Shown here piece by piece: positions 3,449 through 21,829 of a stretch of 35,277 nucleotides of DNA; the stretch's first letter is position 1; the number at the start of each line of letters is the position of its first letter. Position numbers and translations under genes: made by a program. The notes below the pieces were generated by a model. It did no database searches. It worked only from the letters and a program-made list of their open reading frames with translations, and had not been told where the DNA came from. The stretch comes from a bacterium (GTDB taxonomy: Bacteria > DYJV01 > JALVYZ01), in contig JALVYZ010000237.1 in NCBI GenBank assembly GCA_027037705.1, positions 1-35,277 on the forward strand, in the 5' to 3' direction.

Positions 3449-3451
3449 GCA

Positions 3452-4585: not shown

Positions 4586-4591
4586 GGAGCC

Positions 4592-6322
4592 TTGAGGAAG
4601 CCCTGGGAGCGCCCCGGCATAGACAAGCTGGTAGAGAGTATTCGTAGGGGCTCTAGCACCGTCTTCGTTGCCCCGACAGGTTATGGGAAGAGCAAGTCGG
4701 TTCCAAGGCTCCTAGAGGAGAGCAGGAGTGCTGGCATCGCGGCCCGTGTAATACACGTGCTTCCACTGAGGGCTCTCGTCGAGCAACAGTTCATGTTCCT
4801 CAGGAGCCTCTTGGGGAGCCGCGTGGGGTTCCTCGCAGGGCTAAGGCTAGGCCACGGGGACTACTCCGGCTTCATGCTCCGCAAAGCAGTTGTCTCAACC
4901 CTTGACAGCTTCTCCCTCAACCTTGCCCGCCTACCCGTGGCGGAGCTCAGTGGCGTACTCCGAGACGTGTTTGAGGGCCACTACGAGCTCCCCCGCGCAG
5001 CTATTTTCTCCTCGCTAACGGTTCTCGACGAGGCCCATCTCTACGCCGAGCCCTGGGCAGAGGAGCCGCCACTATCAAGACTCTTCACGGAGCTAGTGCT
5101 GAGCGTGTTCTCGCGGGCAGGGCTACCAGTAGTGGTTGAGACCGCTACCATGCCCCGAGGCCTAGTGGAGAGAATAGCCAAGAAGACCCGTGGAGACATA
5201 ATCGCTGTCTGTAGGGACTGTTGCCACGACACAAGGTGCACCGCTATCCATGACAAGGAGTACGAGGAGGAGCAAAGCCTTGCTTGGAGAACAAGCCTAG
5301 TAGACAAGACCAGCGCGCTCCATCGGGCAAAGGAGCTAGCCGAGACTGGTAGAAAGGTACTGGTAAGCGTGAACACCGTGGGCTCCGCTATAGAGGCCTA
5401 TAACTACCTTGCCGAGCACCTGGGTAGAGAGGACATCGTGCTCGTGCACGGAAGACTTAGCGCAGCGGATCGCGAAGAAGCGGTCAAGAATATACCCGGG
5501 GCAAGGATCGTTGTGGCTACACAGGTTATAGAGGCAGGTGTAGACGTTGACGCAGAGGCCCTGGTCACCGAGGCGGCTACCCCTAGTAGCCTAGCCCAGA
5601 GAGCTGGGAGGCTATGCAGAGGCAAGGAGACACTCGAGAGGTGTAGAGAGGAGCCACCAGAGGTAATAATCTATGAGCCCGAGAAGCCCCACCCCTACGG
5701 GGATGCAGTCCCAGCTACATTGATCCAGTTAGAGAAACTCAAGCAGGTGGGAGACGGTGTCGAGTGGAGGCTCCTAGACGACCGGGTAGAGGATACTGGG
5801 AGGCTTAGGAGCTTCCGCGTACTAGTAGAGAGCGTTGAGGACAAGGCCTGGGAGAAACAAGTCCTAGGCAGAGAGCAAGTAGCCTACCTCAACCTCCTAT
5901 ACCTAAGCCTAACAAGCATCTCCAGGGCATCACCGAGGCCAGCAAAGCTACTACTCAGCCACTACTGCAGCCTCGTCCGAGACTCATCCCTCGTAACACT
6001 AGCGATCCCTCGGGATAAGGACGGCTACGACTACCTGGATACCAGCTTGGGCCTCCTAGCAAAGAAGGCTGATAAGATACTTGATTGTCGCGGTGATAGG
6101 TGCAGAGTATTGCTCATAGGTTATGGGGACGAGGTAAAGGAGGTAGAGGACACGGCTCCCCGGGAGAAGTTGCTAAGAGCACTACAGAGCTGCTCGTCGT
6201 ACATGAGTCTCTACCCTGGGCTCGTCGCCGAAGCGGCGAGAAGGCATGGGCTCCGAGGATACCAGCTCCTACCAGTCACGAGGCCCGGGGCCTATCTCAG
6301 AGGAATAGGGCTCGTGGCCTGA
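4592..6322 (+). CDS. cas3': Cas3' SF2 helicase
   Basis: 576 aa. Walker A is FVAPTGYGKSK and the DEAH box is VLDEAHLY. Helicase C motifs are VATQVIEAGVDVD and QRAGRLCR. Confidence 0.9.
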   Translation: MRKPWERPGIDKLVESIRRGSSTVFVAPTGYGKSKSVPRLLEESRSAGIAARVIHVLPLRALVEQQFMFLRSLLGSRVGFLAGLRLGHGDYSGFMLRKAVVSTLDSFSLNLARLPVAELSGVLRDVFEGHYELPRAAIFSSLTVLDEAHLYAEPWAEEPPLSRLFTELVLSVFSRAGLPVVVETATMPRGLVERIAKKTRGDIIAVCRDCCHDTRCTAIHDKEYEEEQSLAWRTSLVDKTSALHRAKELAETGRKVLVSVNTVGSAIEAYNYLAEHLGREDIVLVHGRLSAADREEAVKNIPGARIVVATQVIEAGVDVDAEALVTEAATPSSLAQRAGRLCRGKETLERCREEPPEVIIYEPEKPHPYGDAVPATLIQLEKLKQVGDGVEWRLLDDRVEDTGRLRSFRVLVESVEDKAWEKQVLGREQVAYLNLLYLSLTSISRASPRPAKLLLSHYCSLVRDSSLVTLAIPRDKDGYDYLDTSLGLLAKKADKILDCRGDRCRVLLIGYGDEVKEVEDTAPREKLLRALQSCSSYMSLYPGLVAEAARRHGLRGYQLLPVTRPGAYLRGIGLVA

Positions 6323-6327
6323 TAGCC

Positions 6328-7182
6328 ATGGCTCTCTACGCGTGGACCGGGGTAAGGCTTGGAGAGCATAGCTGCAACGTAGCCGGGCTACTACTGGGGC
6401 TCTTCGGCGAAGAACTAGGAGTGGTTGCTAGAAGGCTCGGCGTAAACACTGACCACTTACTTGTAGCAGCGGGGACAGCTGCACTCCTCCACGACGCTGG
6501 CAAGGCAGCGAAAAAGTTCCAAGAAACACTACGCAGCAGGAGACCGAGCTTCGTCTGCCACGAGCTAGTAGCCGGGAGCCTAGTCTACAACACCACCCAT
6601 GCACTACTAGCCGGGCTCGATGCAGGAAAGGAGGAGCTACTAGCAACAATAGCCAGCATAGCAGCGCTACGACACCACCACGCCATGAGGACCCTCGGCG
6701 AGTGCATAGACCTGGCAAAGAAGCAGAGAGTACCGGGCTTAAGCACAGAGGAAGTGATAGAGCTAGCAGCCGAGATAGAGGAGGCATGCCCCGAGGCAAC
6801 GACCCTAGCACTCGTGCTCCAAAGACTAGCCAGAGACTATACTCCCCTAGAAGGAGCCTCAGTAACAAGAAACGCTATACAAAGCCTCGAAGAAACACAC
6901 CACGTGAGCAAAGAACTACTCTCACTAGCAGCCTCAGCACTAACCGGGCTACTAAGCCTAGCAGACTACCTAGCAGCAACAACACTAGACAAACGAGCCC
7001 ATGATCCCAAGCCACAAGGATACACAAAACAAGTACTCAAAGAACTACAATACCTAATAACACCAGTACAGGGAACAACCCATCTAACCACAAAACTCCA
7101 AACAATAGCGCTCGAGGGGAGAAAGAAACTCGTACAACTACTCGAAGAAGCACTACAGGAAACCATTCTATTCCACTACTAG
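6328..7182 (+). CDS. cas3'': Cas3'' HD nuclease
   Basis: ATG at 6328 lies 5 nt after the cas3' stop. It has an HD-domain motif (ALLHDAGKAAKKFQ) and downstream His residues (ALRHHHAM). The listed ORF 6100..7182 is its unrealistic upstream extension into cas3'. Confidence 0.85.
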   Translation: MALYAWTGVRLGEHSCNVAGLLLGLFGEELGVVARRLGVNTDHLLVAAGTAALLHDAGKAAKKFQETLRSRRPSFVCHELVAGSLVYNTTHALLAGLDAGKEELLATIASIAALRHHHAMRTLGECIDLAKKQRVPGLSTEEVIELAAEIEEACPEATTLALVLQRLARDYTPLEGASVTRNAIQSLEETHHVSKELLSLAASALTGLLSLADYLAATTLDKRAHDPKPQGYTKQVLKELQYLITPVQGTTHLTTKLQTIALEGRKKLVQLLEEALQETILFHY

Positions 7183-7548: not shown

Positions 7549-8065
7549 GACATACTCAAAAGAGAACTGAAAGAATTTTATCAGCAAAGTCTTGTACTCT
7601 CTTTACTAGCTCGCTTCTGACATACTCAAAAGAGAACTGAAAGTAGTAATGACTCTCAACGGGTTCATGAGCCTAAGTATATCGCATGACGAGACATACT
7701 CAAAAGAGAACTGAAAGTATACCGAGCAAGAAAGCAACAATGTAGGGATTAGTAAGCGCCCGACATACTCAAAAGAGAACTGAAAGTCGAGGTACACGAT
7801 GAGCTTCATACCCGACTCTTTTACCTTTAGACATACTCAAAAGAGAACTGAAAGGGAACAGGGACGCGGGGCTTGCGGCCTCGTCGAGTGCGGAGCCCGA
7901 CATACTCAAAAGAGAACTGAAAGGTAGTATCTGGCCGATGGCGGCTCCTGGTAGATAGTCGGTGCCGAATGACATACTCAAAAGAGAACTGAAAGCATCA
8001 CTGTAGTTCTCCGTGCCCCTCTTCTTACATATCTCCAGCGACATACTCAATAGAGAAGTGAAGGT
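7549..8065 (+). CRISPR. CRISPR array 1: 8 x 25-nt repeats GACATACTCAAAAGAGAACTGAAAG, 7 spacers of 43-49 nt
   Basis: Repeats are at 7549, 7619, 7693, 7762, 7830, 7899, 7971 and 8041. The last (8041-8065) has 3 mismatches, so it is the degenerate distal repeat. With the leader on the 5' side and the repeat ending in GAAAG, transcription is on the plus strand. Confidence 0.97.
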
Positions 8066-8427
8066 CACCGTTGGGTTGACTTTGCTGGTATTCCTGGCAT
8101 CTTTCTTGGACATGTCTATGTTTGATTCAGTAAGGAATTTAAAGAAGTAAATACGGGAACAAGATTTGCGTGTCGAGTACTATTATTCGGTCAAGGTGCC
8201 TGGAAGAGGATTGTAAGGCTTGGCTCTGCTGGATTCTATAGCGTGTCGGTCTTACTGAGCTAAGTTTACGAATGCGGAGAAGGGGACGAGCAGGGCGGGA
8301 TAGGAGTTTAATTATGGGGAAATCTGTAGGGGGCTTGTGTAGATAGATGTTGGTTTGGGGAGTAATGCTGAGGAACTGGGGGATAAGGGGTATTGGTGGC
8401 GCTGAGGAGTTCGTGTGCGACCGTTAT

Positions 8428-9861
8428 CTATATTATCTTTATCTTTATATTGTCTGTGTTTTCTGCGAGGCCTATGGCGAAGGGGTAGACTGTTTGTGAG
8501 GCTCCCTGTAGCAGGGCGCAGACTTGCTCTCCTCTGTTCTCCGGGGCTCTATTGATGTGTTCTGCGACTTGTTTCCCCATGTACTCGTTTAGGTAGGGGT
8601 CGCTGTGTGTTAGGGGGAATATGTAGTAGTTCTTGCCCCTGTTCTTATTCTTTTTATTCATTATATCTACTGTGTTCTGGAGGTTTAGGAGCGTGTACGG
8701 CGTCCAAGCGATGTATAGTGGTTTTTCTCCGCCCAGTATCCTCCAGAGTAGCTCAACCACGTAGCCCGATGACTGACCCGTGAGCGTTATTACGGGGATG
8801 CATTTGTCCTCAACTATGTCGCCTAGTCCCTGTACGATGATGCTTAGTCTCCCGATAAGGGGCTCAGTCCTAATATCCTGTACTTGGAAATCCCTTACTC
8901 CGAGGAAATCGAGTACTTGTTTGTATATTGTCTTCTCGATTTCTAGTAGCTTGTTCTTAAGTTCTTCTAGCGAGTGCGTGGTCTTCTTTAGTACCTTTAG
9001 TACTTCCTTGGGGTTCCCGCCTCTATCTATTAGTGGTATTTCTTCTAGTATTTCTGAGAGATGCGAATACATCGATGTCATAGAATACATGTGCTCTAGG
9101 TATTTTGCTGCATCTAGATTCTCAGGCTGGATATCAGTAGGCGCTTCATCTCTTTTATCGAGTAGTTGTCTGATAGGGTCCGCGGCTATGCTGTGTAGTA
9201 GCTCGCCGCCTAGTGTCCCTCCCCACTTATAATGGAGTATGTTCACTAGGTAGTAGGTGACAAGGTCTATGAATAGGGCCATAATGCCCTTGGCGGCGGC
9301 ATCTACACTTACTTCTCCTAACATGTAGCCAGCTACTAGGTTCTGAGCAGCTGCTGCGTGGAGCTCGAAGCCTTGCCGGGTTAGGCCGGAGAGCAGGGCT
9401 GTTGCGAGAAGGGCTGCTGGGGGATCGCCGCCTAGCTCACTGGTACAGGTCTCCAGGGCAGCGCTGATACTCTTTCTGCGTATAGCTGCTAGGTTCTTCT
9501 GCACAGATAGGTGAGCCATAGCCATGTATCGCGGGTCATAAATTATATCGAGGGGTTTAGAGATAATATTCGCTATCACCGTGTCGCTAGGCAACGGTGA
9601 GAGAGGATAAGCCCGAAGATATAGTAAGGCCCTATTAAGAGCTATGGCGCCGGAGCCCTTTTCCCTGTGGCCTAGCCTTAGGCCGAGTAGCCTAGCAATC
9701 CTCGAGCCAAGGGCGATATGACCAATGTAGATAGCATCATCACTGCTATCCTTGTATCCTAGGTTATACCTCGTATAGCTGAGATACTTTAACAAGTACC
9801 CGAAGAAGTTTCCTCCACTACTGGGCTTGATTTCCAGGAGAAGCTGCTCCAACGCGACCAC
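8428..9861 (-). CDS. Hypothetical protein A (477 aa): helical N-terminal two-thirds, Rossmann/CARF-like C-terminal third
   Basis: Long ORF with a GGAGG 13 nt after the stop of the upstream gene. The antisense ORF is Ser-rich junk. The C-terminus has a beta-alpha pattern (VITLTGQSSG ... YYIFPLT ... VCALLQGASQTV) and an internal TRQGFELH (Rx5H). No confident family was assigned. Confidence 0.7.
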   Translation of the reverse strand: MVALEQLLLEIKPSSGGNFFGYLLKYLSYTRYNLGYKDSSDDAIYIGHIALGSRIARLLGLRLGHREKGSGAIALNRALLYLRAYPLSPLPSDTVIANIISKPLDIIYDPRYMAMAHLSVQKNLAAIRRKSISAALETCTSELGGDPPAALLATALLSGLTRQGFELHAAAAQNLVAGYMLGEVSVDAAAKGIMALFIDLVTYYLVNILHYKWGGTLGGELLHSIAADPIRQLLDKRDEAPTDIQPENLDAAKYLEHMYSMTSMYSHLSEILEEIPLIDRGGNPKEVLKVLKKTTHSLEELKNKLLEIEKTIYKQVLDFLGVRDFQVQDIRTEPLIGRLSIIVQGLGDIVEDKCIPVITLTGQSSGYVVELLWRILGGEKPLYIAWTPYTLLNLQNTVDIMNKKNKNRGKNYYIFPLTHSDPYLNEYMGKQVAEHINRAPENRGEQVCALLQGASQTVYPFAIGLAENTDNIKIKII

Positions 9862-9874
9862 ACCTCCCGGTTTA

Positions 9875-11197
9875 TTATTTACAGGAAGCGATTCTTCGCA
9901 AGGCGTCGCTGTCGCGGCCTAGACACCTAATGTACAAATGGTACGAGGTGTCCTGGGGTACTCTGAGCCGTCCTTCCTCGTCAACTACCTTTTTTACGTA
10001 GTTAGACGCCTTCATTGACTCAAACATCTTTCCTATATTGTTATTTTTAGTGTTTTTGTTGCTCGTTCTACTTAGTGCTATGAGGGTCTCGGGTATAAGT
10101 ACGAAGCATATATGCTCTATCCCCTGTATCCTCGTCAGGGTGCATATAATATTGTTTAGGAGTTGCTTGGAGTAGTCGTAGAGGGGTAGGAGATACACTG
10201 TCCTCGGCTTATAACCTGCTATAAGATCTCCTAGCTTGTCTTCCCTGTACTCTGAATCGATATTGGCAATGCATGCCTCCATATGGTGTCTATTTCTTAG
10301 CTCGGACTCTATTGTCTCCGATGACTCTTTTATGAGCTCGTTAGAGGCTATGAGTATCCTTAATACTCTTAGTGCTTTCGCCAGCCTAGCCGCCACGTCT
10401 ACTGCTTTGTGTATGGGTTTTTCCTCCGCAGATTTTTCCTCTGTGGATGACTGAGCAGCGGCTCTACGGTACTGTGGCAAAACCACTAGCACTCCTTCAT
10501 CAGCCTTGCTGATTTGCTTGGCCTCCTCGACAGCGTCTTGGATGAAATCGCTGGGTATGCACTCGTGGAGCCTGAGAGGATCCTTGCATGCCTTGTCGCC
10601 TTGGCCTCCTCGTTGACCAGACCGGAGTATCTCGGCTAAGTCACTCATAGCGCGCTCAGAGAGCTCGCTATTACTGAATAACAGCATGTAGTGTAGCGCG
10701 TTGACTAGCTCCGGGCAGCACTTGGCTTCCTCGAAGAACTGGTTTACGAGGGCTTTTTCCAGCCCCCCCTGCCCACTACTGTTTTCTTGTAGGCAGCACT
10801 TAAGGAGCTGCTCGAAGGAGTCGGCTGGCAGCCTTACCGGGGTTCCTAGGGGCAGCTGCTTATTGAAAGCATCTCTGTGCTCACTCTTGAGCATGTAGAC
10901 CGGGCTAAGCCCTAGGTCGGGGTCGCGTGCCGCAACCTTCCGTGTCTCATTAGCTCCGCTGACCTCTTCTACTAGCAAGTAGGTGTGAAATCCGTTCCCG
11001 CAGTCAAGCTCTACTATTAGGTCTATTTCGCGTAGTGCCTCGCTGAGAATATAGGCGAGCTGGGGAGGAAAGACGTTCACAGATGGTGCGCAGTAGGTTA
11101 CTTTGTACCCCAGTATAGTGCAGTCACTATTCGAGGTAGACAACGCTCTGCAGCCTCTCTTCCTATACCCCTGGTCAAAAATATAAATACTTTCCAC
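9875..11197 (-). CDS. Hypothetical protein B (up to 440 aa)
   Basis: Long ORF co-oriented with protein A, 13 nt apart. The GTG at 11197 is doubtful because a TATA-like gtatttatattttt (11177-11190) lies inside its first codons. An in-frame TTG at 11143 is a plausible real start. No family was recognised. Confidence 0.65.
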   Translation of the reverse strand: MESIYIFDQGYRKRGCRALSTSNSDCTILGYKVTYCAPSVNVFPPQLAYILSEALREIDLIVELDCGNGFHTYLLVEEVSGANETRKVAARDPDLGLSPVYMLKSEHRDAFNKQLPLGTPVRLPADSFEQLLKCCLQENSSGQGGLEKALVNQFFEEAKCCPELVNALHYMLLFSNSELSERAMSDLAEILRSGQRGGQGDKACKDPLRLHECIPSDFIQDAVEEAKQISKADEGVLVVLPQYRRAAAQSSTEEKSAEEKPIHKAVDVAARLAKALRVLRILIASNELIKESSETIESELRNRHHMEACIANIDSEYREDKLGDLIAGYKPRTVYLLPLYDYSKQLLNNIICTLTRIQGIEHICFVLIPETLIALSRTSNKNTKNNNIGKMFESMKASNYVKKVVDEEGRLRVPQDTSYHLYIRCLGRDSDALRRIASCK

Positions 11198-11227: not shown

Positions 11228-11656
11228 GTGAGCGAAGTGCCAAAGGCAATAGTTATTGGAAGGCATAGGATGATGCCAGCCCAGGTAGAGGAGCTCCGAG
11301 AGAAAGGCATAGACGCGATCGAGCAGGTAGCGAAGATAGAAGAGGACGAAATACCGCAGCTCGTGGAGACGTGGGCCAGGAACGATGTGAGATACGTAGT
11401 TATCCAGGCACTACCACTAGCACTCCTATACAAGCTGTTCCGGGAGGCAAGGAAAGCAGGCATAGATCTAATAATAGCTTGGATGGATACAGTCGCGGTA
11501 ACAGAGGACGAGGAAGAAGCAAGGAAACTAGTCCAGGAAAAACCTGATAGGAGAACTTACCTCAAAGCACCAGGCGACAAAGCCATAAGAGTCATCGAGC
11601 ACAGGAAATGGATGAAGATAAAAAGGCTAGAAGTAGAGCTAGAACCCCTACAATAG
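11228..11656 (+). CDS. Hypothetical protein C (142 aa), small alpha/beta protein
   Basis: E/K/R-rich, coding-like composition, whereas the antisense ORF 11098..11463 is Ser-rich junk. Divergent from B and convergent with D (5-nt gap). aaaatataaatac at 11177-11190 lies about 40 nt upstream. Confidence 0.6.
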   Translation: MSEVPKAIVIGRHRMMPAQVEELREKGIDAIEQVAKIEEDEIPQLVETWARNDVRYVVIQALPLALLYKLFREARKAGIDLIIAWMDTVAVTEDEEEARKLVQEKPDRRTYLKAPGDKAIRVIEHRKWMKIKRLEVELEPLQ

Positions 11657-11661: not shown

Positions 11662-12363
11662 CTAATCATCGGCAAAAACAACGCAAACCGGGCCAACATC
11701 GCTGCCTAGCTCGATATACTTAACCCCACCATTCTCTTCCATTATGCTGCTACACAGCGAGCCCTCCCTATCACAGAAAAGGGCTACACTGATACCAGCA
11801 CGGAGCCTCCCATACATGTTTCTGAGCCCATCCACTATACACTCTATAGCGCTGATAACTCGTTGGCACTTGTCGCTATGCCTAGCTCCCCTATAGCACC
11901 GCTGAACCATGTTGACGAGATCCCTGCACTTGATACGAGGGTTAAACAAGCAAATAGTATTCTCCTTTATAACGAATTCCCCTAGCAGGGACACTACTCT
12001 TCCAATGAACCCTAGTTCATCCGGATAAGTTTTGCATATATATTGGACTCTCTCGAGACAGCGAGCCGCCAGCTTAGCGGACGAAGCAGCTTCTCCAAGA
12101 TTAGGGAAAATTATTGCAGCACCATAGCCTCTAGGAGACCCTGCAGTATATGCCTGGGTCACTTTTACCAGTTTCCATAAACCTTTTGACCAGTCTTTGC
12201 CGCTGAATATTTTGTTAAGTGATTCGCAGGCTTCACGAGCATAGTTCTTATCAATCCTGCAGTCCTGTGCTGAGGGGTCGCTGTGCTTGTTGCACAGGTT
12301 AAACACATCTAGGTCAATGATGTAGACGTAGTTCTCGGTAATGTCTCTATTGGGGTTGGTCAA
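11662..12363 (-). CDS. Hypothetical Cys-rich protein D (233 aa), last gene of a three-gene overlapping operon
   Basis: Start overlaps the ATPase gene by 17 nt. It has 13 Cys. N-terminal YVYIIDLDVFNLCNKH and downstream VKVTQAYTAGSPRGYGAAIIF weakly resemble a palm/cyclase fold (see findings). Confidence 0.65.
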   Translation of the reverse strand: MTNPNRDITENYVYIIDLDVFNLCNKHSDPSAQDCRIDKNYAREACESLNKIFSGKDWSKGLWKLVKVTQAYTAGSPRGYGAAIIFPNLGEAASSAKLAARCLERVQYICKTYPDELGFIGRVVSLLGEFVIKENTICLFNPRIKCRDLVNMVQRCYRGARHSDKCQRVISAIECIVDGLRNMYGRLRAGISVALFCDREGSLCSSIMEENGGVKYIELGSDVGPVCVVFADD

Positions 12364-13531
12364 AGCTCTTTTCCTCCGAGGAATGCTGCGAGAGGGCTAG
12401 TGCCTCGGCGAGAGCAAAGGCGGCATAGGGCCTCTGCTCGTAGCGGAAGGCCCTCTTTGCGCGGCTGAAGCGAGCGTAGTACACTGTAGCGTTGAAGCGG
12501 GATGCACCGCTAACAATGTAGGGCGAATGGGTAGTTAGGACAACCTTAACTTCCTTCCCGTTGCCTTGTAGTAGCCTTATGTATCTGCCAAGGATATATG
12601 CGAATAGGAATTGTTGCGGGGGAGAAAATGCTTCCTCGGGCTCCTCTATAACCGCGACTATTGTATTCTCCCTCTGCGCGAAGACATAGGGCAGAATGCC
12701 TAGCAGCAAGTAGGACGCCACCGACGAGGAAACCACGTCCGGGGGCACCGTGGCTGTAAGCCTATTGTCTTGTACTAGGAGAGCTAGGCTCCCGAGATCT
12801 ATTGATAGCGCGGGTTTTCCTACGTGGCCCGTATCCGATATGGTTACGTCGACGCTTAGGGGGATAAGGTCCTCTGCGGATATTTTCTCATCAATGTCTC
12901 CCAGTAGCTCGTTAAGTGCGTCCACTGCTCTTTCGATGCTCTCTTCTTGGGCATCTAAGAGCTTCTTCAGTAGCCATGGGTTGGCCCTAGCCTTGTATAT
13001 TAGTGCCTCGGCTAGTAGTGGGTGCATGAAGCCCCGGAGAACATTACCATGGTTCTTGATGTGTTGCTGCAGGTCTTTGCAAAGCTCTTTGAGTTCCTGC
13101 ATCCTGTTTGATTCTTCCTCGGGTATGTACACGGATAAGGAGTCAATCATATTACACAACGTGCCGACATCTTGCTCTATTCCCTCAATGCTCTCACTGA
13201 TGCTTTTCTCGAGGACAAGGCTCTGGCGCAGCACTATGCGGTAATCAGGCGCCATATATGCTACAATATCGCTTCCCAAATCCCCCCTAATTTCCCCGCC
13301 CGCGTAGCATAGGTTGCCGCGCGATGCATGTAGGCATACAGAGGCATTGTCTTTCCGCCATAGTCTATCGAGTTCGTTTACATCCCGGCTGGCAAGAGCA
13401 TATATTGTTCTAGCTATTATAGACTTACCTGTGGAGTTGAAGCCAGCAATCACTGTATAATCGTCCACCTCTAGTTTGAAGTCATCGCCGAAAAGCTTAG
13501 AGCCCGTTACTTCAAGCAACCATTTACCCAT
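12347..13531 (-). CDS. ABC-type (AAA_21/AAA_15-like, SMC/RecF-class) ATPase, protein E
   Basis: 394 aa. Walker A is AGFNSTGKS (aa 29-37), with a helical insert after it. It has a signature-like VSSSVASY, Walker B VAVIEEPEEAF and an H-loop VLTTHSPYI. Confidence 0.8.
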   Translation of the reverse strand: MGKWLLEVTGSKLFGDDFKLEVDDYTVIAGFNSTGKSIIARTIYALASRDVNELDRLWRKDNASVCLHASRGNLCYAGGEIRGDLGSDIVAYMAPDYRIVLRQSLVLEKSISESIEGIEQDVGTLCNMIDSLSVYIPEEESNRMQELKELCKDLQQHIKNHGNVLRGFMHPLLAEALIYKARANPWLLKKLLDAQEESIERAVDALNELLGDIDEKISAEDLIPLSVDVTISDTGHVGKPALSIDLGSLALLVQDNRLTATVPPDVVSSSVASYLLLGILPYVFAQRENTIVAVIEEPEEAFSPPQQFLFAYILGRYIRLLQGNGKEVKVVLTTHSPYIVSGASRFNATVYYARFSRAKRAFRYEQRPYAAFALAEALALSQHSSEEKSFDQPQ

Positions 13532-14028
13532 ACTCCTCTTCCTCGGGGAAACCAGGGAATAACTAGCGGGGAAAGAATAAATACATCTCCAAGGAGTCCC
13601 TCGTTGAGAAAGATGCTGTGTACAATCTGGTGAAGCATCATATCCCTCGCTAGCTCTATCGATGCAGTAAAGCAGCCCCTTCTACGCTTTACCGAGAACC
13701 TCCTACCACCCTCTAGCACACCGTATGCCCTGGTACAGAGGACTAGGCTACTGCACCCAAGCACTATACTCCTCACGCTGGTCTCTGGGCAACGTGAAGG
13801 CTCCGTAAAGACTATCAAGCCTAGTTCTCTACTAGGGCCACACACCCACGTGCTAGGCATGAGAGGAGAGACCCCGGCCTCGATAAGCCTCAGTACAAGC
13901 TCTACGAGGCTCTCTAATCTACTGCATCCAAGTATTGTGAGCCCCCGCTTTACCTCTATGCTGCACTCTGCGAGATGTCTCCCTATGGCTTTGGGCTCTT
14001 CTACGCGGCCGTATACGAGTAGGGGCAC
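13507..14028 (-). CDS. Hypothetical protein F (173 aa), first gene of the F-E-D operon
   Basis: GTG start. The 3' end overlaps the ATPase start by 25 nt. No motif was recognised. Confidence 0.5.
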   Translation of the reverse strand: MPLLVYGRVEEPKAIGRHLAECSIEVKRGLTILGCSRLESLVELVLRLIEAGVSPLMPSTWVCGPSRELGLIVFTEPSRCPETSVRSIVLGCSSLVLCTRAYGVLEGGRRFSVKRRRGCFTASIELARDMMLHQIVHSIFLNEGLLGDVFILSPLVIPWFPRGRGVWVNGCLK

Positions 14029-14130
14029 CGAGTCCTTGTTCTCTATTCCTATCCCCGCTATCTTGGCCCCTATTATAGACCACCATGAAGTATAAATATT
14101 TATACTCTGGATAAAGACTATAAAGTAGCG
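14029..14130. promoter_or_regulatory. Divergent promoter region with palindromic TATA element
   Basis: A perfect 16-bp palindrome gtataaatatttatac lies at 14090-14105, between the divergent F-E-D operon (start 14028) and the type III operon (GTG 14131, about 30 nt downstream, consistent with a leaderless mRNA). A second box, ctataaag, is at 14118-14125. Confidence 0.55.
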
Positions 14131-14586
14131 GTGCCTCCGTCCTTGGCCTCAACTACTAGAGCCATAGATTATTACTCGGCGCGGTCCTGCAGGAGCCTCT
14201 GGCTCGATAGAACTGTACAGTACCTTAGCAGTAGTAATGTCAATGAGGTTAATCTGGTTGAGTACGTTCTAAGGGGGCGGTTAACCAATATAGCTAGCTC
14301 GCCCTCAGCTGCCCGCAGGATACATGAGGCTGCTATTAGTATTCTTGACCGTATCGCGCAGGGGAGGTATGGCAGCGAGATATTCGCTGAGCTCGCTGGT
14401 CTCGAGGTCTTTGCCCGTTACCAGGCCGAGCGCAAGCAAATCGATAAATGCCTAGCCGACATCGTCGCTGATGTTGTAAGAATGCTTGCCGAGCTAATAC
14501 GCAGCGGCGATCCTAGTGTTAAGCGTGTTGCGCGGAGGGCTCGTCTCGTCTTCGATTCCCTAATAGTGGGTGTAAGGCCGCGCTAA
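14131..14586 (+). CDS. Putative type III small subunit (Csm2/Cas11-like)
   Basis: 151 aa, predicted helical C-terminal half, first gene of the Csm-like operon. The call rests on size and position only. Confidence 0.35.
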   Translation: MPPSLASTTRAIDYYSARSCRSLWLDRTVQYLSSSNVNEVNLVEYVLRGRLTNIASSPSAARRIHEAAISILDRIAQGRYGSEIFAELAGLEVFARYQAERKQIDKCLADIVADVVRMLAELIRSGDPSVKRVARRARLVFDSLIVGVRPR

Positions 14587-14600
14587 GAATAGCAAGAGGG

Positions 14601-15593
14601 GTGTGTTGCCCCGTGAGCCAGTCTGAGTTCTTCTCTCTGAAGAGGCGTCTCCTGGGCTTCTACGAGTTCGAGCTAAGTGTTAGGGTTAGGACGGGTCTCC
14701 TTATTCGCAAGCCTAGCCAGGCCCAGCTAAGTATAGGCGGCGCCGATGTATGGCCTATGAGTATTGAGCGCTACTATGAGTGCGGCAACGAGAGGCTTGG
14801 TGTAGAGGTGCCGTATATACCTGGCTCGAGCCTGAAGGGGCGTATGAGGAGTCTCTTGGAGCAAGCTCTTGGAACGGAGTACGTCACTACTGATGGTAAG
14901 ATATTCCAGCATGTCCGTAGCATTGATGCATTCTTCCGTAGCTATGTTGATGAAGTAGAGGCGCGCCACAAGTTCATGGAGGATGTCTTGAATAGGTGCC
15001 CGGTTGACGAGGTCTTTGGCTATGCAAGCTTTAACTACTTGCAGCACCTCCGGGGCAAACTACAGCTAGAAGAGAATAGTGCCAAGAAGCTAATGGAGTA
15101 TCTTGCCCCGACACGTCTCTATGTCGAGGACCTCTACCCGGATGAGGGCTATGTGTGCAAGCTCTATAAGCGCCTTGAGCGCCAGGTTTATCTAAGTGAC
15201 TTCTTGGAGGAGAAGCCCGAGAACAGAATCGATAGGTTGACTGCTGCAGCGGATCCTCGTCTCTCTGTCCGCGTTAAGCCCGGTGTAGTGTTCAGGGGGC
15301 GTATACAGCTACTAGTCTATGATAACGACTGCGAGGCTTGTCCCAGCGAGGAGCAGCTATGCGTCGAGAGGAACCTGGGCCTCGTTATCCATGGGCTTAG
15401 GCTCGTTGAGTCCCTGGGCCTCGGTGCTGCTACTAGCCGTGGCTACGGTAGGGTCGGGATTAGTGTAGAGCGGCTAGTGTTCTACGAGGCTCCTGGTCTC
15501 GAGGGGAGAGAGCTACTAGGCAAGCCAACGCCCGTCACCGAGCTAGAGCCCAGTAGCGAGATTGTTGCAGCTGCATGCCCTAGTAAAGGGTAG
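14601..15593 (+). CDS. csm3: Csm3-like Cas7-family RAMP (type III backbone)
   Basis: 330 aa. It has VPYIPGSSLKGRMRSLLEQ, EVFG, ENRIDRLTAAADP and a G-rich loop LGLGAATSRGYGRV. A candidate catalytic Asp is in SIGGADVWP. Confidence 0.85.
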   Translation: MCCPVSQSEFFSLKRRLLGFYEFELSVRVRTGLLIRKPSQAQLSIGGADVWPMSIERYYECGNERLGVEVPYIPGSSLKGRMRSLLEQALGTEYVTTDGKIFQHVRSIDAFFRSYVDEVEARHKFMEDVLNRCPVDEVFGYASFNYLQHLRGKLQLEENSAKKLMEYLAPTRLYVEDLYPDEGYVCKLYKRLERQVYLSDFLEEKPENRIDRLTAAADPRLSVRVKPGVVFRGRIQLLVYDNDCEACPSEEQLCVERNLGLVIHGLRLVESLGLGAATSRGYGRVGISVERLVFYEAPGLEGRELLGKPTPVTELEPSSEIVAAACPSKG

Positions 15594-15601
15594 TTGAGGC
15601 C

Positions 15602-16609
15602 TTGAGCACATCTTCTCCGCCGACGAGGCGCTACCTATACGTTGTGGTTGAGTTTAGGTCCCAGTTTAGTAGCTATTCTCCGAGCCTTGCCGAGGGCTAC
15701 ATAGGCTCGACGAGCCTGCATGCAGCCGTAATGGCTGCTGTAGCTATGCTGGGCCACGGCATTAGTGATGGGCTGGCCGAGGCGAGGTTTTCCTCCCTGC
15801 TACCAGTGGCCCGGGGTAGTAGCGGCTACGTTGCTCTCTTTCCCCCGCTACGGCTACCTAGCTATGGCAAGGTTCCCCGCGGCTTCTGGACGCCCCGTGC
15901 AGTATCCCTGGTACTGTCCGTGCTTAGTAGTTGCTCGGGGAGAGGCGCCGATATCGTCCTGGAGAGAGGCGGGGATAACTATGTTGTAAGGTGTATGGAT
16001 GGGGGCGAGTCCCGGGAACTGGTATACTCTCGGGAGACCGGGGTCTTCGCGGCGCCTGGCGAGCAGCTAGATTTTAGGCCACCGGGGTTCCGTAGCGATA
16101 GGCATAGGCTCGTTATCAGCAGGGTTACTTACAGCGCTACGCCCTTCATGATACCAGTTGTTGAGCCTAGGAGCCCGTACTGGTTCGTAGCAGAGCTACG
16201 GAGCGAGCAGCTATGCGGCACCGTGGTAGAGGCGCTGAGGCTAGCCGAGCACCTCGGAATGGGGGCTCATAGGAGCATAGGGCTCGGGAGAATAAGGATA
16301 ATTAGCTATGAGTGCACAGAGTCGCCGCCAAGCTTCCTAGCAGGTAGCCGGGGAGGCGGCATCGGGGTATCACTGGGCCTCCTCTACCCCGAGCAGGGGA
16401 GCTGTAGTGTCTACTACGGCGAGACTGCCTTGTTCGGTGCTTATCGGGGCTACGGCGGTGTGGTGATTAGCTTCCGGAGGCCCCTGGTAAGGGCACTTGC
16501 CCCCGGCAGTATTGTTGGAACCGATTGCAGGGGGCGGGTCATTAGGGGCAATGGTTATCCCTACGTGTATTCGTTCAATCCCATTGTGTATCCGGTTGCC
16601 CCTGTGTAG
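15602..16609 (+). CDS. csm4: Csm4/Csx10-like Cas5-family RAMP (type III)
   Basis: 335 aa. N-terminal YLYVVVEFRS...IGSTSLHAAVMAAVAMLG resembles the Csm4 SDTLFSAL region. The C-terminal G-rich loop is EHLGMGAHRSIGLGRIRI. Confidence 0.7.
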   Translation: MSTSSPPTRRYLYVVVEFRSQFSSYSPSLAEGYIGSTSLHAAVMAAVAMLGHGISDGLAEARFSSLLPVARGSSGYVALFPPLRLPSYGKVPRGFWTPRAVSLVLSVLSSCSGRGADIVLERGGDNYVVRCMDGGESRELVYSRETGVFAAPGEQLDFRPPGFRSDRHRLVISRVTYSATPFMIPVVEPRSPYWFVAELRSEQLCGTVVEALRLAEHLGMGAHRSIGLGRIRIISYECTESPPSFLAGSRGGGIGVSLGLLYPEQGSCSVYYGETALFGAYRGYGGVVISFRRPLVRALAPGSIVGTDCRGRVIRGNGYPYVYSFNPIVYPVAPV

Positions 16610-16624
16610 CGAGGCATAGGAGCC

Positions 16625-17746
16625 ATGGAGCAGAGTAGTTATAGGCTATTGCTGAGACCCCGTACACCGCTCCACGTAGCCTCCGGGGAGAAGACGGTCA
16701 TAGGCATAGACTCGGTGATACACTACGGGAAGCTCTACGTAGTGGACGTTGAGTGCACTGCGAGAATATATGCAAAGCTCTACGGCGCCGAGGCCCTCCT
16801 AGCCAGTAACGCCCGAGCCATAGACCTCTTTAGAAGAGTTCTCGGCCGATACAGGCCCGGGGTTCTTAGCTGCACCCCCTACCGCCTAGTAGTCGGGCTA
16901 AGAACGAGAACGCCACCCCGTGGCGCCGAGGTCTCGCTTCCACAGAGCACCCTAGTACCGGGCTCGAGCATTAAGGGCGCTCTACGCACGGCACTACTCT
17001 ACGCCCTCGTGGACGCCGAGCCTAGGGAAGCCTTGGAGAGGATTAGGAAAGGGGTATCCAGGATAGTCCCGGGCCAGCCCCGAAGCCTACTAGGAGCCGC
17101 TGACCCCGTGGAACAGCTCCTAAAAGGCTCAAAGCCCCACGGCAGGGGTAGGTTCATCTACGATGCTGCCCGCCTCCTCGCAGTTAGCGACCCCCTGCGC
17201 CACAGGGCCTCCCTAGGGCTCTACGCTTTTCGGACGATACACGTTAACGACGGCCGCCCGGTTAGCCTAGAGTACGTCGTCGCCCTGGACCCCGGCGCGG
17301 AGATAGAGTATGAGCTGAGGCTCTACAAGCCCTCCTACAACACGCCTGTGAAGCAGCCTTGGATAAAAAGCCTACAGGAAAAAGACAAGACAATAAGCAT
17401 CGATACCCTGCTCCGGGGCCTCGCCCTGTTCTCGGAGACCCAGATAGCGAGCGAGCTCGAGAGAATAGGTGAGCGCTTCCCGCGGTACAAGAGCTTCCTA
17501 GAAGACCTGGGGAAAATGAGAAGCAGGAACTGTTTTCCACTACGCCTCGGCTACGGCGCAGGCCATGCATCGAAGACCCTCCTACCATGGCTGAGGCGAC
17601 GCGACCCCGGGCTCGCCAAGCGGCTCGAGGAGCTACTCTCGCGGCACTATGGCCGCGTATGGGATAGTCTCACAGATACCTTCACCGATCACAACGGCTC
17701 CCTCCTCGGCGTGGGCTGGGCCACACTCTGCATAGAGGAGAGGTGA
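16625..17746 (+). CDS. csm5: Csm5-like RAMP (type III)
   Basis: 373 aa. It has LLLRPRTPLHVASGE, LVPGSSIKGALRTALLYAL and a G-rich RLGYGAGHASKT. Its stop overlaps an ATG (tgATGa) at 17744-17748. Confidence 0.75.
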   Translation: MEQSSYRLLLRPRTPLHVASGEKTVIGIDSVIHYGKLYVVDVECTARIYAKLYGAEALLASNARAIDLFRRVLGRYRPGVLSCTPYRLVVGLRTRTPPRGAEVSLPQSTLVPGSSIKGALRTALLYALVDAEPREALERIRKGVSRIVPGQPRSLLGAADPVEQLLKGSKPHGRGRFIYDAARLLAVSDPLRHRASLGLYAFRTIHVNDGRPVSLEYVVALDPGAEIEYELRLYKPSYNTPVKQPWIKSLQEKDKTISIDTLLRGLALFSETQIASELERIGERFPRYKSFLEDLGKMRSRNCFPLRLGYGAGHASKTLLPWLRRRDPGLAKRLEELLSRHYGRVWDSLTDTFTDHNGSLLGVGWATLCIEER

Positions 17747-17749
17747 TGA

Positions 17750-20700
17750 GCCCTGGTTGGCAGGATTGAGGAGGTAGCGCTACACGGCCTACTACACGAT
17801 ATCCATAAACCCCTTGCTAGGCTGCTTCAAGTCTATAGAGGATGCGACATAGGAGAAATAGCTAAGAGGATAGCTGAAACGGCGCGGGGCTATGAGCTAG
17901 GAGACGAAGATATAGAGGGCTTCAAGGACTACGTAATCAAAGTCCTAGAGAAGGTTGAGGAGAATGGCCACGGGCTGCGCAGAAGCCTCGTCAACGAGTT
18001 CGCCAAGGATTCGAGCGAGCCTAGGGACTTGATAGAGGTCGCTATAAGGCTTGCCGACGAGGAGTCGGGGCTAGAGGACATAACGACCAGGATTGCGAAC
18101 TCCTCGCTAGAACCGCATCTCACTCCATTCCTCAACCCTCTCGCCCTGCTATTCGCCTCCGGGTTCTCCAGCCACGACGTTGCCGAGCTAAACCTAGATG
18201 ACGCCAGCATAGTGATGAGTAGTGATAAGCGTAAGTGCCTATTAATGACTAGCCAGTGGTGCAGGCAGAGACTACAAGAGTTCCTAGAAAGGGTTGAGAG
18301 AAGCGATACAGCGGCACTAAGAAGCATCCTTGGCGGCAATCACTGGCACCCAGTGAGGCCGCTTAGGTGGAAAGAGCCTAGCAGAGCCGAGGAGATCTCA
18401 GCGCTCTACGGTGCCCGAGGCTATAGGGAGGCAATCGTGGACTACACTAGTGTCGCGGCAAGCTTGTTGGCGGGGCTCTATAGGCTCAGAGCTGCTACGA
18501 GGAGCCTAGGCAACCGCCTCGACACTGTTAGGTCGCTGCTAGGGGTGCTCCGTCGCAGCCTCCTCCTGGTACCCTCGAGTATCCGTAAGGGCTCCTCGGG
18601 GCTAGCCCTGCCAGAGATAAGCCTCTATGCCCATAGCCGCGTAGTGGCTGGCTTCGCCTCCGCCATAGCTGCTACTGGGAGGAGCCCGGGCTGCTACAGG
18701 CTTGTACTTCTAGACATAAACGGTATACAGCGCTACATAACTAGGCACCGCGTAGTAAGCGCAGCGGTGAAGGCTTTTCGTGGCAGAAGCCTCCTAGTAG
18801 AGCTCGCCCAGAGAGCCGCTGCGAACTTCGTCTTATCGAGACTGGGTCTTGCCTGGAGCAGTGTCTACACATACGAGGGAGGCACGGTATCGATAATAGC
18901 GCCGTGCACCGAGAAGCTCGAAGAAGTACTAGGAGAGCTCGAGGAGAGGTTCAGCGAGGAGTTCGGGGGATACCTCGGAGTAACAGCTGTTGCTAGCCGG
19001 GAGCTAGAGGTAGGGCCGGGCACGTATAGCTCGAGGTACAGGTTCCGCCCCGAGGACGAGAACAGCTTTGCCCACGTCCTCTCGGAGACGCAGCGCATGC
19101 TCTCAGCCAGGAAGCTCAAGAGACAGACACATAGCCTAGAACAACTAGGGCCCGAGGAGCTCGAGTACGACCCCCTCGTGGAGGAAAACACGCCCCGGAG
19201 AGAATACGTGGGAGTAAGCGGTGAGCTAGGCGCTGAGTACTGGAGACTAGTCTCAAGCGACGACGCGGCAGCAGCCATAGTCGAGCACGGCGGGGTTTCA
19301 AGGGATACTCATAGAGCCCTCGTAGCTGGCAGTAGCGCCCCAAACCTGTTCATGATAATAGAGCTCTACTTGAGCGGCGATGGCTGCGAGAAAGCCATCG
19401 AGGAACTAGCAGGGAGGGTAGCTGAGGCACTACTCGGCTCCAAGGAGAGACGCTACGATATAATCCCTATTCATCGCGGCCAGGAGCTAAGAATAGGGAT
19501 TATAGAGCTACCAAAACTATGCACGGTATACATACTGTTAGCGTTGCACACGCTTAGCCCGGAGCAGAGCATTGACTGGAGACTCGTGGAGACAATCATG
19601 GGTATGCTGGCTGAGAAGCCCCTAGATGGTAAGGAGCTAGGGATAGAGGAGGCGCTCATAGTGTTCTCGTCGGTGAACATTGTTGAGGAGTTCCTACCCA
19701 GCGAGGAGACGGTGAGAAACCTGGATAACCATGTAAGGAGCTGGCTGAGAGGAACTAGGTACAGGATAGGCTTCGACTGGGTAGCAATCAATACACGCTA
19801 CCCCCTAGTGCAGGGAGAACACCGGGTCCAGATAAGGAGCCTAGACGAGGCAGCAGAGGCCACCGGGCTCATAGCCCTAGTCAAGCTCGATGCAGACAAC
19901 GTGGGCAACACCGTATTCTACATGGCATCCTCTCCCTCGAGGCTAGCAACGCTAAGCGAGATCCTAGCAACTACCTTCGGGCTCCTAAGCTACAAGCTAC
20001 TAGACCTAAGCAGCAACTACAACGACAGTGTATACGTCGTGTTCATAGGAGGCGACGACGCAGCCTACTTCGGCGAACTAGTAGCAGCAATGCAGTACGC
20101 CACGGACATAACGCGCCTAGCAAACTCGATGCTCCCAGGACTCACGATAAGCGGGGCAATAAGCATAGAGGAGCCAAAGCTCCCCCTTTATCTAGCTTAT
20201 TACCACGCACTAGAGCGCCTAGAAAAAGCAAAGAACGAGCCAATAATAGTACTAGGAGGCAACGAGCCAAGAGGCATAGTAGCAATAACCCAGATGACAA
20301 AGCCAATAACACTCTGCCTCAGAGAAGACGACACAAAGAAACCCGTAAAGATAGAGACAATAAGCTGGCAAACACTAGAAAACACACTACGAGAACACCA
20401 ATCAATAAGCGACGAGACCCTATGGAAGAGGACAGCAAAGCTAGTAACCCTAGTAGCGGACACGCTCGCAGAGATAATGAAGAAGCAAAAATGCAGCCTC
20501 ACCGGCACAGAGACAGCTAGAACCCTAATAGCGTATACATACTGGCGCGAAAGAATAGGCCAAGCACCAGGCCAAGAAGAAAACAACGTAGACAAAATAC
20601 TAGAGAAAATAACGGGCACCAGGCCGAGATACCCACCAAGCCAGCCAAACAACACCAAGGAACGATACAGGCTCTACACAATACTACAACTAGCCAGAAA

Positions 20701-20752
20701 CCCGCTCAACATAATATACCAGCTCCTAAGACTCCGCAGACAAACAACTTAG
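17750..20752 (+). CDS. cas10: Cas10 (HD + two Palm domains, GGDD cyclase motif); start unresolved
   Basis: The frame is open from 17750. An HD motif ALHGLLHDIHKP is present (HD codons 17795-17800). Palm1 is LLDINGIQRYI...FRGRSLL, Palm2 is LVKLDADNVGN, and GGDD is at 20048-20059. The first canonical in-frame start is only the TTG at 18029, and the ATG at 17746 is in another frame (see findings). Confidence 0.85.
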   Translation, partial: ALVGRIEEVALHGLLHDIHKPLARLLQVYRGCDIGEIAKRIAETARGYELGDEDIEGFKDYVIKVLEKVEENGHGLRRSLVNEFAKDSSEPRDLIEVAIRLADEESGLEDITTRIANSSLEPHLTPFLNPLALLFASGFSSHDVAELNLDDASIVMSSDKRKCLLMTSQWCRQRLQEFLERVERSDTAALRSILGGNHWHPVRPLRWKEPSRAEEISALYGARGYREAIVDYTSVAASLLAGLYRLRAATRSLGNRLDTVRSLLGVLRRSLLLVPSSIRKGSSGLALPEISLYAHSRVVAGFASAIAATGRSPGCYRLVLLDINGIQRYITRHRVVSAAVKAFRGRSLLVELAQRAAANFVLSRLGLAWSSVYTYEGGTVSIIAPCTEKLEEVLGELEERFSEEFGGYLGVTAVASRELEVGPGTYSSRYRFRPEDENSFAHVLSETQRMLSARKLKRQTHSLEQLGPEELEYDPLVEENTPRREYVGVSGELGAEYWRLVSSDDAAAAIVEHGGVSRDTHRALVAGSSAPNLFMIIELYLSGDGCEKAIEELAGRVAEALLGSKERRYDIIPIHRGQELRIGIIELPKLCTVYILLALHTLSPEQSIDWRLVETIMGMLAEKPLDGKELGIEEALIVFSSVNIVEEFLPSEETVRNLDNHVRSWLRGTRYRIGFDWVAINTRYPLVQGEHRVQIRSLDEAAEATGLIALVKLDADNVGNTVFYMASSPSRLATLSEILATTFGLLSYKLLDLSSNYNDSVYVVFIGGDDAAYFGELVAAMQYATDITRLANSMLPGLTISGAISIEEPKLPLYLAYYHALERLEKAKNEPIIVLGGNEPRGIVAITQMTKPITLCLREDDTKKPVKIETISWQTLENTLREHQSISDETLWKRTAKLVTLVADTLAEIMKKQKCSLTGTETARTLIAYTYWRERIGQAPGQEENNVDKILEKITGTRPRYPPSQPNNTKERYRLYTILQLARNPLNIIYQLLRLRRQTT

Positions 20753-20870: not shown

Positions 20871-21578
20871 CCCTCAATTCTTTATTGAGTTAATCTCACC
20901 AACCCGCTCATCCACTACCCAGAGCCAAGTCTTGTTAACCTTACAATTCTCTATTGAGTTAAGCCCAGTACACTAGAGACCCTGTCCTGCGACAAGATAG
21001 CTTACAATTCTCTTTTGAGTTAAGCGCGTGCGCGGGGCTGTACGGATAGGGATGGAGCCAGGCGTACCTTTCAGTTCTCTTTTGAGTTAAGCTCGTCGAT
21101 GTTGGTCCCGATGATTATCGGTTATTCCGGAATAGCTTTCAGTTCTCTTTTGAGTTAAGCCGTTTCGGAGCTGAAGCTGATCTAGAAATATATCCAAAGA
21201 TGAAAGCTTTCAGTTCTCTTTTGAGTTAAGCGGGAGGAAACCATGTTCGGGAACATAGATTGGAAGAGCTTTGTGATCTTTCAGTTCTCTTTTGAGTTAA
21301 GCAAAGCTGTAAAGGTGTATGCAAAGTATCTCGATTGCTATATTTACTTTCAGTTCTCTTTTGAGTTAAGCACGAGAACGTAGCTCACGATCTAGCATTC
21401 ATGGCTGGGTATGCTTTCAGTTCTCTTTTGAGTTAAGCTCTATCCTAATCGTAGACCGTGCTTCCACAACCTGATACCATCCTTTCAGTTCTCTTTTGAG
21501 TTAAGCTCAGCTATCTCCGATAATCTGTTCTCTAGTGCTATTCTGTCTAGGAACTTTCAGTTCTCTTTTGAGTTAAGC
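20871..21578 (-). CRISPR. CRISPR array 2: 11 x 25-nt repeats (minus-strand GCTTAACTCAAAAGAGAACTGAAAG), 10 spacers of 36-47 nt
   Basis: Repeats (plus-strand ctttcagttctcttttgagttaagc) are at 21068, 21136, 21207, 21278, 21347, 21414, 21482 and 21554. The distal variant cttacaattctct(t/a)ttgagttaagc is at 20940 and 21001, and a degenerate repeat is at 20871. The leader is on the high-coordinate side, so transcription is on the minus strand. Confidence 0.97.
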
Positions 21579-21829
21579 TGGTATGGTTTCCTTTTGGATC
21601 CGAATAGTAACTGGTTTGAGGCAATTATTTATGCTTATCGGAACGAGTCTAATTCCCATGCATCAAGCCCTCCGAGACCCTCAAGGCGTTCCCATGGATT
21701 CGCATGGATTCGAAACAATGTTCCCAAGGAGCCTTGCAACTCCACCCACGATGTGTTCCCAAGGGAACCGAAAGAGGAGTTTAAAGGTTAAGACAAACAA
21801 GGCAAACAAGCAATCGGAGAGAATAGTGA
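21579..21829 (-). promoter_or_regulatory. CRISPR leader 2
   Basis: 21579-21788 is the reverse complement of 23435-23644 with about 3 mismatches. The TATA-like ataaataa (minus strand) is at 21625-21632. Homology resumes at 21812-21829 after a 23-nt substituted block. Confidence 0.8.

Follow-up and report, generated by a model that had tools for sequence, protein, structure and literature searches.

A three-gene ABC ATPase operon next to an archaeal type III CRISPR-Cas locus and its probable relation to the Cas_RecF accessory genes

Contig JALVYZ010000237.1 of assembly GCA_027037705.1 carries three overlapping genes on the minus strand, here called F, E and D (positions 11662–14028), of which E encodes an ABC ATPase and the other two encode small proteins. 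Do these genes constitute a defence system of their own, or do they belong to the type III CRISPR-Cas operon that begins on the other side of a short control region? The window, by which we mean the whole stretch of DNA that was analysed, is 35,277 nucleotides (nt) long, and a first, sequence-only reading of it had proposed a defence module in which an ATPase is paired with a small effector, possibly of a new type. The pairing of an ATPase with a small partner was borne out, but the module is not independent, being linked to type III genes, and it is not a new system, as its kind has been described before (PMC3973734, PMC6546367), although a new effector chemistry is still possible. F-E-D is probably the form taken here by an accessory module that is dedicated to type III (Csm-type) CRISPR-Cas in archaea, matching the catalogued ATPase Cas_RecF and the small RFas proteins that go with it. 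What makes the locus interesting is the function of the ATPase and its partner, together with a P-loop that is unusual in most of the family, rather than novelty as a system.

Linkage of the module to type III CRISPR-Cas genes

Gene F (13507–14028) encodes 173 amino acids (aa) from a GTG start, E (12347–13531) encodes 394 aa from an ATG start and D (11662–12363) encodes 233 aa from a TTG start. The list of open reading frames (ORFs) confirms the overlaps that had been read from the sequence, 25 nt between F and E (13507–13531) and 17 nt between E and D (12347–12363). The start of F at 14028 and the first gene of the divergently oriented type III operon at 14131 are separated by exactly 102 bp, the size that had also been claimed for a control region common to both operons. 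The type III operon itself (14131–20752, plus strand) is type III-A-like, with RAMP genes recognised by Pfam and with Csm4, Csm5 and Cas10/Csm1 recognised by NCBIfam.

Flanking DNA of E homologues was taken from exact-protein look-ups, GTDB species genomes, metagenomes and viral contigs, and was searched by tblastn with the Cas proteins of the window and with hidden Markov models (HMMs) for E, D and T, where T is a second small protein that is located 3' of D in most lineages. All related contigs whose upstream sequence was long enough were included, and these represent 14 lineages (window type, L003/L006, L005/L008, L010, L011/L017, L012, L013/L018/L020, L014, L019, L021/L022, L023, L094, L142 and L143). 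E adjoins type III RAMP/Cas10 genes in all 14 of them, and in most it is divergent from the type III operon across 44–280 bp. Identity to the window ATPase does not exceed 37% in any of the lineages, and the linkage is kept down to 21–27% identity and across several archaeal orders. In these heat-loving archaea the linkage of the E module to type III CRISPR cassettes is strict. The same csm-type operon flanks most E homologues, while L003, L006 and L142 have a different cassette with an HD-Cas10, and a gene for Csx1 (CARF-HEPN) is also present in several loci (L010, L142 and L143). A scan of the viral contigs gave no full-length E homologue, only generic matches to the C-terminal motifs.

The genome closest to the window type is a Pyrodictiaceae metagenome-assembled genome (MAG), JALVKZ01, with 87% identity in E. 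The other lineages are found in five Desulfurococcales MAGs, in metagenome contigs from hot springs and vents, in a Nitrososphaerota MAG (L143) and in a distant Crenarchaeota MAG (L142). One carrier is in culture, namely Thermofilum pendens Hrk5 (L094), which has the canonical order E-D-T with E as ABL78763.1 at about 1.322 Mb in CP000505.

A D-like ORF recognised by the D HMM is located 3' of E in 13 of the 14 lineages, at a distance of −26 to +20 nt. The exception is L142, which has the most distant E homologue (P0052) and where the partner is a different ORF of 238 aa located upstream of E (9237–9953, plus strand), with no match to the D HMM or the F HMM. The N-terminus of this ORF, VVVIVDPQII, looks PIN-like, and its upstream position is that of F in the window. 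F itself is found only in contigs that are 75–99% identical to the window. Of the suggestion that F-E-D is conserved as a unit, the coupled E-D pair therefore holds but F does not, and by these profile matches the conserved unit is E-D(-T) and not F-E-D.

The 102-bp region (14029–14130) shows 91% identity over five contigs and is more conserved than the synonymous sites of the flanking genes, which have diverged to a synonymous distance (dS) of 0.2–0.6. It contains a palindromic AT-rich box, TATAAATATTTATA, at 14091–14104, and a second TATA-like element, CTATAATA, on the minus strand. The region is likely to be a shared bidirectional promoter. A conserved GATAGCGGGGATAGGAATAGAGAAC stretch is also seen immediately 5' of F.

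Genes of this description have been catalogued before. Vestergaard et al. 2014 (PMC3973734, Table 5) listed Cas_RecF together with RFas, which are diverse small proteins of about 170 aa, and also a pair named Cas ABC ATPase + sRRM, e.g. YN1551_2137/2138. In Shah et al. 2018 (PMC6546367) Cas_RecF is cluster 17, an SMC ATPase of 330 aa, and cluster 83 (160 aa) is found "invariably" next to it beside type III-A cassettes; cluster 84 is similar in size to cluster 83, with a weak similarity to it, and cluster 108 has 180 aa and a hydrophobic N-terminus. The small proteins were reported to be without database matches and without known function, a CARF gene is often located alongside the clusters, and the authors speculated that the ATPase supplies the energy for target cleavage (PMC6546367). 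The published Cas_RecF/RFas clusters are from Sulfolobales and Thermoproteales, with VMUT_1481 and P186_0874 as named members and VMUT_1493, TTX_1229, Pcal_0278 and P186_0873 as partners, and Tpen_1359, which is located near the E-D-T copy of T. pendens, is listed as a type III accessory gene (PMC6546367). A literature search found no experimental work on Cas_RecF, and these two were the only papers in the library searched that mention it; since 2014 the ABC ATPase modules that accompany archaeal type III loci have been listed as "strongly associated, function unknown".

The features of Cas_RecF and RFas recur in the locus and its relatives. E is predicted by Pfam and by AlphaFold/Foldseek to be a RecF/SMC-type ABC ATPase of the roughly 330-aa kind, with family members of 320–390 aa; it is located 102 bp from the csm operon and beside type III genes throughout the 14 lineages; and small partners of about 160–180 aa without database matches are present, D-like in 13 of 14 lineages and T-like in most. 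The E-D-T layout agrees with the published description of Cas_RecF and RFas point by point, the two being likened by layout and description.

The ATPase E and its small partners

The motifs of E that had been noticed at the outset were recovered, with Walker A (GFNSTGKS) at residues 30–37 (nt 13421–13444), Walker B (VIEEPE) at residues 294–299 (nt 12635–12652) and the H-loop (TTHSP) at residues 333–337 (nt 12521–12535). In addition there is a signature-like SSSVAS (nt 12713–12730) and a PPQQ motif (nt 12611–12622). Pfam matches above threshold were obtained for AAA_15 (5e-13) and AAA_21 (8e-9), and Pfam, PADLOC and Foldseek agree with the AAA_21-like ABC ATPase class first proposed. The sole match in a search of PDB sequences with E was the OLD nuclease 6p74 (3e-4), and E, D and F gave no equivalog match in NCBIfam, where RecF, Rad50 and SMC were included for E. 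The gene is under strong purifying selection, with a ratio of non-synonymous to synonymous substitution rates (dN/dS) of 0.12–0.16.

An AlphaFold2 model of E, made with 44 family sequences in the alignment, is confident, with a predicted local distance difference test score (pLDDT) of 86 and a predicted template modelling score (pTM) of 0.81. It consists of an ABC head into which four helices are inserted at residues 97–210, forming a predicted helical arm of about 115 residues, and has neither a long coiled coil nor a hinge; the modelled protein ends after the ATPase head. A Foldseek search of the PDB with this model returned the heads of SMC, cohesin and condensin, RecN and Rad50 at 1e-10 to 1e-7 and a template modelling (TM) score of about 0.4, and with similar significance AriA (8v46), the OLD nuclease and the PtuA-type ATPase from the retron-IA complex. 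By model and motifs E is an SMC/Rad50/OLD-class ABC ATPase, predicted to be without a fused nuclease.

The top structural matches to SMC, cohesin, RecN and Rad50 heads, and the fact that the earlier literature named the ATPase after RecF, would both fit a housekeeping DNA repair ATPase (RecF, RecN or Rad50-like) that is encoded here by chance. This explanation is contradicted by the lack of an NCBIfam equivalog match for RecF, Rad50 or SMC, by the short helical insertion, and by a family that is tiny, patchy and always adjacent to CRISPR. A profile made from E and its first homologues was searched against 1.84 billion representative proteins and gave 50 representatives at an expect value of ≤1e-10, with full-length members of 320–390 aa; the family comprises about 45 clusters at 50% identity, and below it follow generic AAA_15 ATPases of at least 400 aa, from about 1e-9 upwards. 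Judged by this profile search, the E family is small, discrete and not housekeeping, in agreement with the expectation that E would stand apart from SMC, RecF and transporter ATPases. We give the chance encounter with a repair gene hardly any probability, and in view of the distribution seen in the searches such a role is effectively excluded.

In the family alignment K36, E296/E297 and H335 (window numbering) are invariant, and there is hardly any variation in Walker B (EEPE), in the P..QQ that comes after it or in the H-loop (TTHSPY). In about three quarters of the family the second Gly of Walker A, which precedes the Lys and normally does not vary, is replaced by a bulky hydrophobic residue (Leu, Phe or Met), giving GxN[AS][TS]-[L/F/M]-KS (alignment A9), and the canonical Gly is kept by E of the window lineage.

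The PADLOC run that had been suggested for the three proteins gave partial ATPase matches for E and no match for D or F. The best match of E is AriA (1e-13), followed by PD-T4-4_A, GajA and PtuA, all of them partial and confined to the C-terminal ATPase motifs (for AriA, residues 184–340 only). The GajA HMM matches about 60 residues around the H-loop only, and the PtuA HMM matches are partial, at 1e-6 or weaker, with 17.9 bits against a cut-off of 500 for the PtuA model of NCBIfam. These names, the high Foldseek ranking of AriA and of the PtuA-type ATPase of retron-IA, and an overlapping architecture of two or three genes that is typical of such systems would all agree with abortive infection by an autonomous system like Septu, PARIS or Gabija, in which the ATPase guards or licenses a small toxic effector independently of Csm and the location next to CRISPR is incidental. 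On the other hand, E is located directly beside a type III operon in 14 of 14 lineages, mostly divergent from it and down to 21–27% identity, and defence-island neighbours are reshuffled far faster than such a linkage would allow; moreover, PADLOC recognises only the C-terminal ATPase motifs, and no partner resembles PtuB, AriB or a Toprim protein. Because the type III linkage is invariant, we regard a Septu- or PARIS-like system that works on its own as improbable.

The partner D has the N-terminal motif YIIDLDVFNLCNKH (nt 12283–12321), which contains Asp17 and Cys24, invariant in the family. The D-like ORFs are 160–233 aa long and have the motif hhhDhhxhxxCxHP in common (alignment A7), and D of the window has a lineage-specific insertion of about 60 aa. 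With a dN/dS of 0.21–0.23 the gene is under moderate purifying selection. Neither D nor F shows the Toprim, HNH or DUF4435 signatures in the PADLOC, Pfam and NCBIfam searches, as stated in the sequence-only reading, and D has no match in Pfam, NCBIfam, PADLOC or the PDB. When 16 D-like proteins were compared with Pfam at an expect value of ≤10 only noise was obtained, with no RRM, HNH, Toprim or DUF4435 domain; the D and T profiles gave only noise against PDB sequences; and a protein search with a fused E+D+T alignment returned only proteins of the window lineage. The AlphaFold model of D, made from an alignment of six sequences, has a pLDDT of 37.5, which is too low for a fold search. The sequences show an alternating beta/alpha pattern; the invariant Asp and Cys are placed on a strand-helix at the N-terminus, and an acidic residue that is semi-conserved comes after a later "hhhC" strand. 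This pattern and the invariant Asp are compatible with a PIN-like or another small alpha/beta nuclease, as a motif pattern only, and we do not claim that D is PIN-like.

T is 150–185 aa long, with Cys26, Glu40, Trp42 and Cys45 and a C-terminal R..KP...PP as invariant residues. The T HMM matches the next ORF after D in L008, L011, L012, L014, L017, L019, L021, L022, L094 and L143, and elsewhere in the locus, on the opposite strand, in L013 (861–1313, minus strand) and L010 (1994–2464, minus strand), so T is a positionally mobile third subunit. Among the ORFs of the window the T HMM does not detect F (E-value 3.3), and by these searches T has been lost from the window lineage, which has F upstream of E in its place.

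The reading frame of F is open over 173 codons in five of five contigs, and an antisense frame that shares its wobble positions is interrupted by a stop in four of them. We prefer the F frame, as of the two only this one lacks internal stops throughout the contigs; dN/dS was tried as a test between the two and cannot discriminate, since the frames share wobble positions. The dN/dS of F is 0.35–0.49, two- to fourfold the values for E, D and the adjacent RAMP gene, and its GTG start is changed to GCG in two of five close relatives (L004 and L015). F has no match in PADLOC, Pfam or NCBIfam. Comparison of F and T with hhalign gave probabilities of 7.6% and 8.3%, and a permissive run gave 16% with a collinear alignment of 142 columns that pairs "..hhxCxxhxxhhxxhxxhhxxG" and a C-terminal "hLxPxxIP", stretches that had been spotted by eye earlier. 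These alignments are suggestive only, and homology of F and T is unproven. F is probably a real, fast-evolving and lineage-specific gene, which may either substitute for T or be a very diverged T.

How could such a module act together with the Csm effector? E and D probably assemble into one complex, because their tight or overlapping junctions would give translational coupling. Like all ABC ATPases E would be an ATP-engaged dimer, used as a nucleotide-driven clamp or switch, and D would be the output subunit, perhaps a metal-dependent nuclease. With a shared promoter the E-D complex would be made together with the Csm effector, and by analogy with PtuA-PtuB and AriA-AriB it might extend or modulate type III interference against nucleic acid that Csm has flagged. 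The coupling of the module to Csm could be direct, go via nucleotide levels, or be absent.

Type III CRISPR systems act through signal molecules made by Cas10 and effectors with CARF or SAVED domains. Should the module turn out to be an effector, type III immunity would gain an output branch that does not depend on CARF proteins. A stronger version of this idea is that E-D(-T/F) constitutes a type III effector arm working without a CARF or SAVED sensor, in which the SMC-like ABC head, mostly with the non-canonical P-loop GxNxx[L/F/M]KS, couples directly to Csm activity (through ATP depletion by Cas10, a Cas10 product or docking to target-bound Csm) and releases D, with a fold and chemistry new to defence. 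We think it has only a small chance of being correct.

The module could instead help or regulate the type III complex, as an ATP-driven factor for assembly or for loading of CRISPR RNA, as a remodeller that assists Csm in reaching or clearing its target, or as an off-switch that limits signalling. The presumed co-regulation from one conserved bidirectional promoter would suit this, as would a partner D without a recognisable nuclease motif, the presence of Csx1, a conventional CARF effector, in L010, L142 and L143, where an extra nuclease is not obviously needed, and the published speculation that the ATPase powers target cleavage (PMC6546367). However, many type III-A systems function without such a factor, and SMC/Rad50-like heads with small partners have so far mainly been nucleic-acid clamps and effector scaffolds. 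A helper function is on balance rather unlikely.

Several points weigh against reading F-E-D as a Cas_RecF-type accessory module that delivers an output. No CARF or SAVED sensor was recognised in E, D or F, and with neither a fold nor a catalytic motif for D the word nuclease is a guess. The substitution of the P-loop Gly in most members of the family questions ordinary ATP binding, although E of the window is canonical. The coding signature of F is weak and its start codon is not conserved. Finally, membership in cluster 17 is proposed from the published description, which the pair Cas ABC ATPase + sRRM would fit about as well. What the window and its relatives do provide is the definition of a three-part module (E, D and T) with the invariant residues of each part, a third subunit that appears to be swappable (T for F), an unusual P-loop in most members, and in T. 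pendens Hrk5 a cultured carrier of the canonical version.

The surrounding CRISPR super-locus

The wider window is a CRISPR super-locus with a type I-A and a type III cassette and three CRISPR arrays that were located by repeat search. The type I-A cassette, which includes csa3, is located at 289–7182 and is followed by array 1 (7549–8066). The type III operon, all of it on the plus strand, starts with the gene for the small subunit (14131–14586) and continues with a Csm3-like RAMP recognised by Pfam (14601–15593), Csm4 (15602–16609) and Csm5 (16625–17746), both assigned by NCBIfam, and Cas10 (18029–20752), which matches the NCBIfam model for Cas10/Csm1 and has an intact GGDD motif (FIGGDDA in the translation). 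Array 2 (20875–21581) has 11 repeats and is located directly 3' of cas10, and array 3 is found at 23643–24169. Array 2 runs in the opposite direction to arrays 1 and 3. Repeats with the 5' variants GACATACTC... and GCTTAACTC... are intermixed within array 3, and there are two 3' variants in array 2; the mixed repeat variants suggest recombination between the arrays.

Three orphan genes sit between the type I-A and type III cassettes. H477 (8428–9861, minus strand, 477 aa) and G440 (9875–11197, minus strand, 440 aa) are conserved only in the closest relatives, L001 and L007; they have no match in any of the libraries and no detectable similarity to each other, and their position is the one where other loci of the E family have a Csx1/CARF effector. 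X142 (11228–11656, plus strand, 142 aa) is convergent on D with 5 bp between the stop codons, and is the most constrained gene of the neighbourhood, with 96% amino acid identity to L001 and a dN/dS of 0.09 against 0.12–0.49 for its neighbours. It has no match in Pfam, NCBIfam, PADLOC or the PDB, and comparison of G440, H477 and X142 with PDB sequences and all fetched loci gave no relatives beyond the window lineage. A gene of the PaREP1 family is located between arrays 2 and 3 (22710–23240, minus strand), and a second PaREP1-family gene is found a few kb from the E-D-T module in T. pendens (L094, 13310–13831, minus strand).

Comparison with known systems

PtuA-PtuB of Septu and retron Ec78 has the same general design, an AAA_15-type ABC ATPase with a helical arm that is encoded in overlapping genes with a small effector, and the ATPase chains of retron-IA are among the best structural matches of E. 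PtuB is however an HNH nuclease, no HNH match was found in D or F, and Septu is not linked to CRISPR. In PARIS an ATPase scaffold, AriA, is likewise combined with a small partner, AriB, and AriA is both the best PADLOC match of E and one of its structural matches (8v46), but AriB is a DUF4435/Toprim nuclease, for which D and F gave no match, and PARIS lacks a CRISPR link. GajA and the OLD proteins belong to the same ATPase subfamily by sequence and differ in having a fused C-terminal Toprim nuclease where E ends after the head.

The SMC, Rad50 and RecN heads are the top structural neighbours, with the head fold and an antiparallel helical insertion between its lobes in common with the model of E. 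They are set apart by the long coiled coil, hinge or zinc hook and by partners of the Mre11, kleisin or ScpA type, all of which are missing from E and its operon, and the distribution of E is not that of a housekeeping gene.

The two catalogued CRISPR accessory pairs come closer. Cas ABC ATPase + sRRM (PMC3973734) also combines an ABC ATPase with a partner of about 150 aa that is always present, near type III and some type I loci of crenarchaea; the RRM that defines this partner gave no Pfam match in the 16 D-like proteins, and the comparison is otherwise made by description only. Cas_RecF with RFas shares with the present module the ABC ATPase beside type III (mostly III-A) genes, one or more small orphan proteins that always go with it and, in many loci, a Csx1/CARF gene. 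It differs in that E of the window is longer (394 aa) and has a canonical Walker A, that D has an insertion of about 60 aa, that T is replaced by an upstream and unrelated-looking F, and that the window lineage is Pyrodictiaceae/Desulfurococcales-like. With F for T, an enlarged D and a canonical P-loop, the module would be a somewhat aberrant relative of the catalogued kind.

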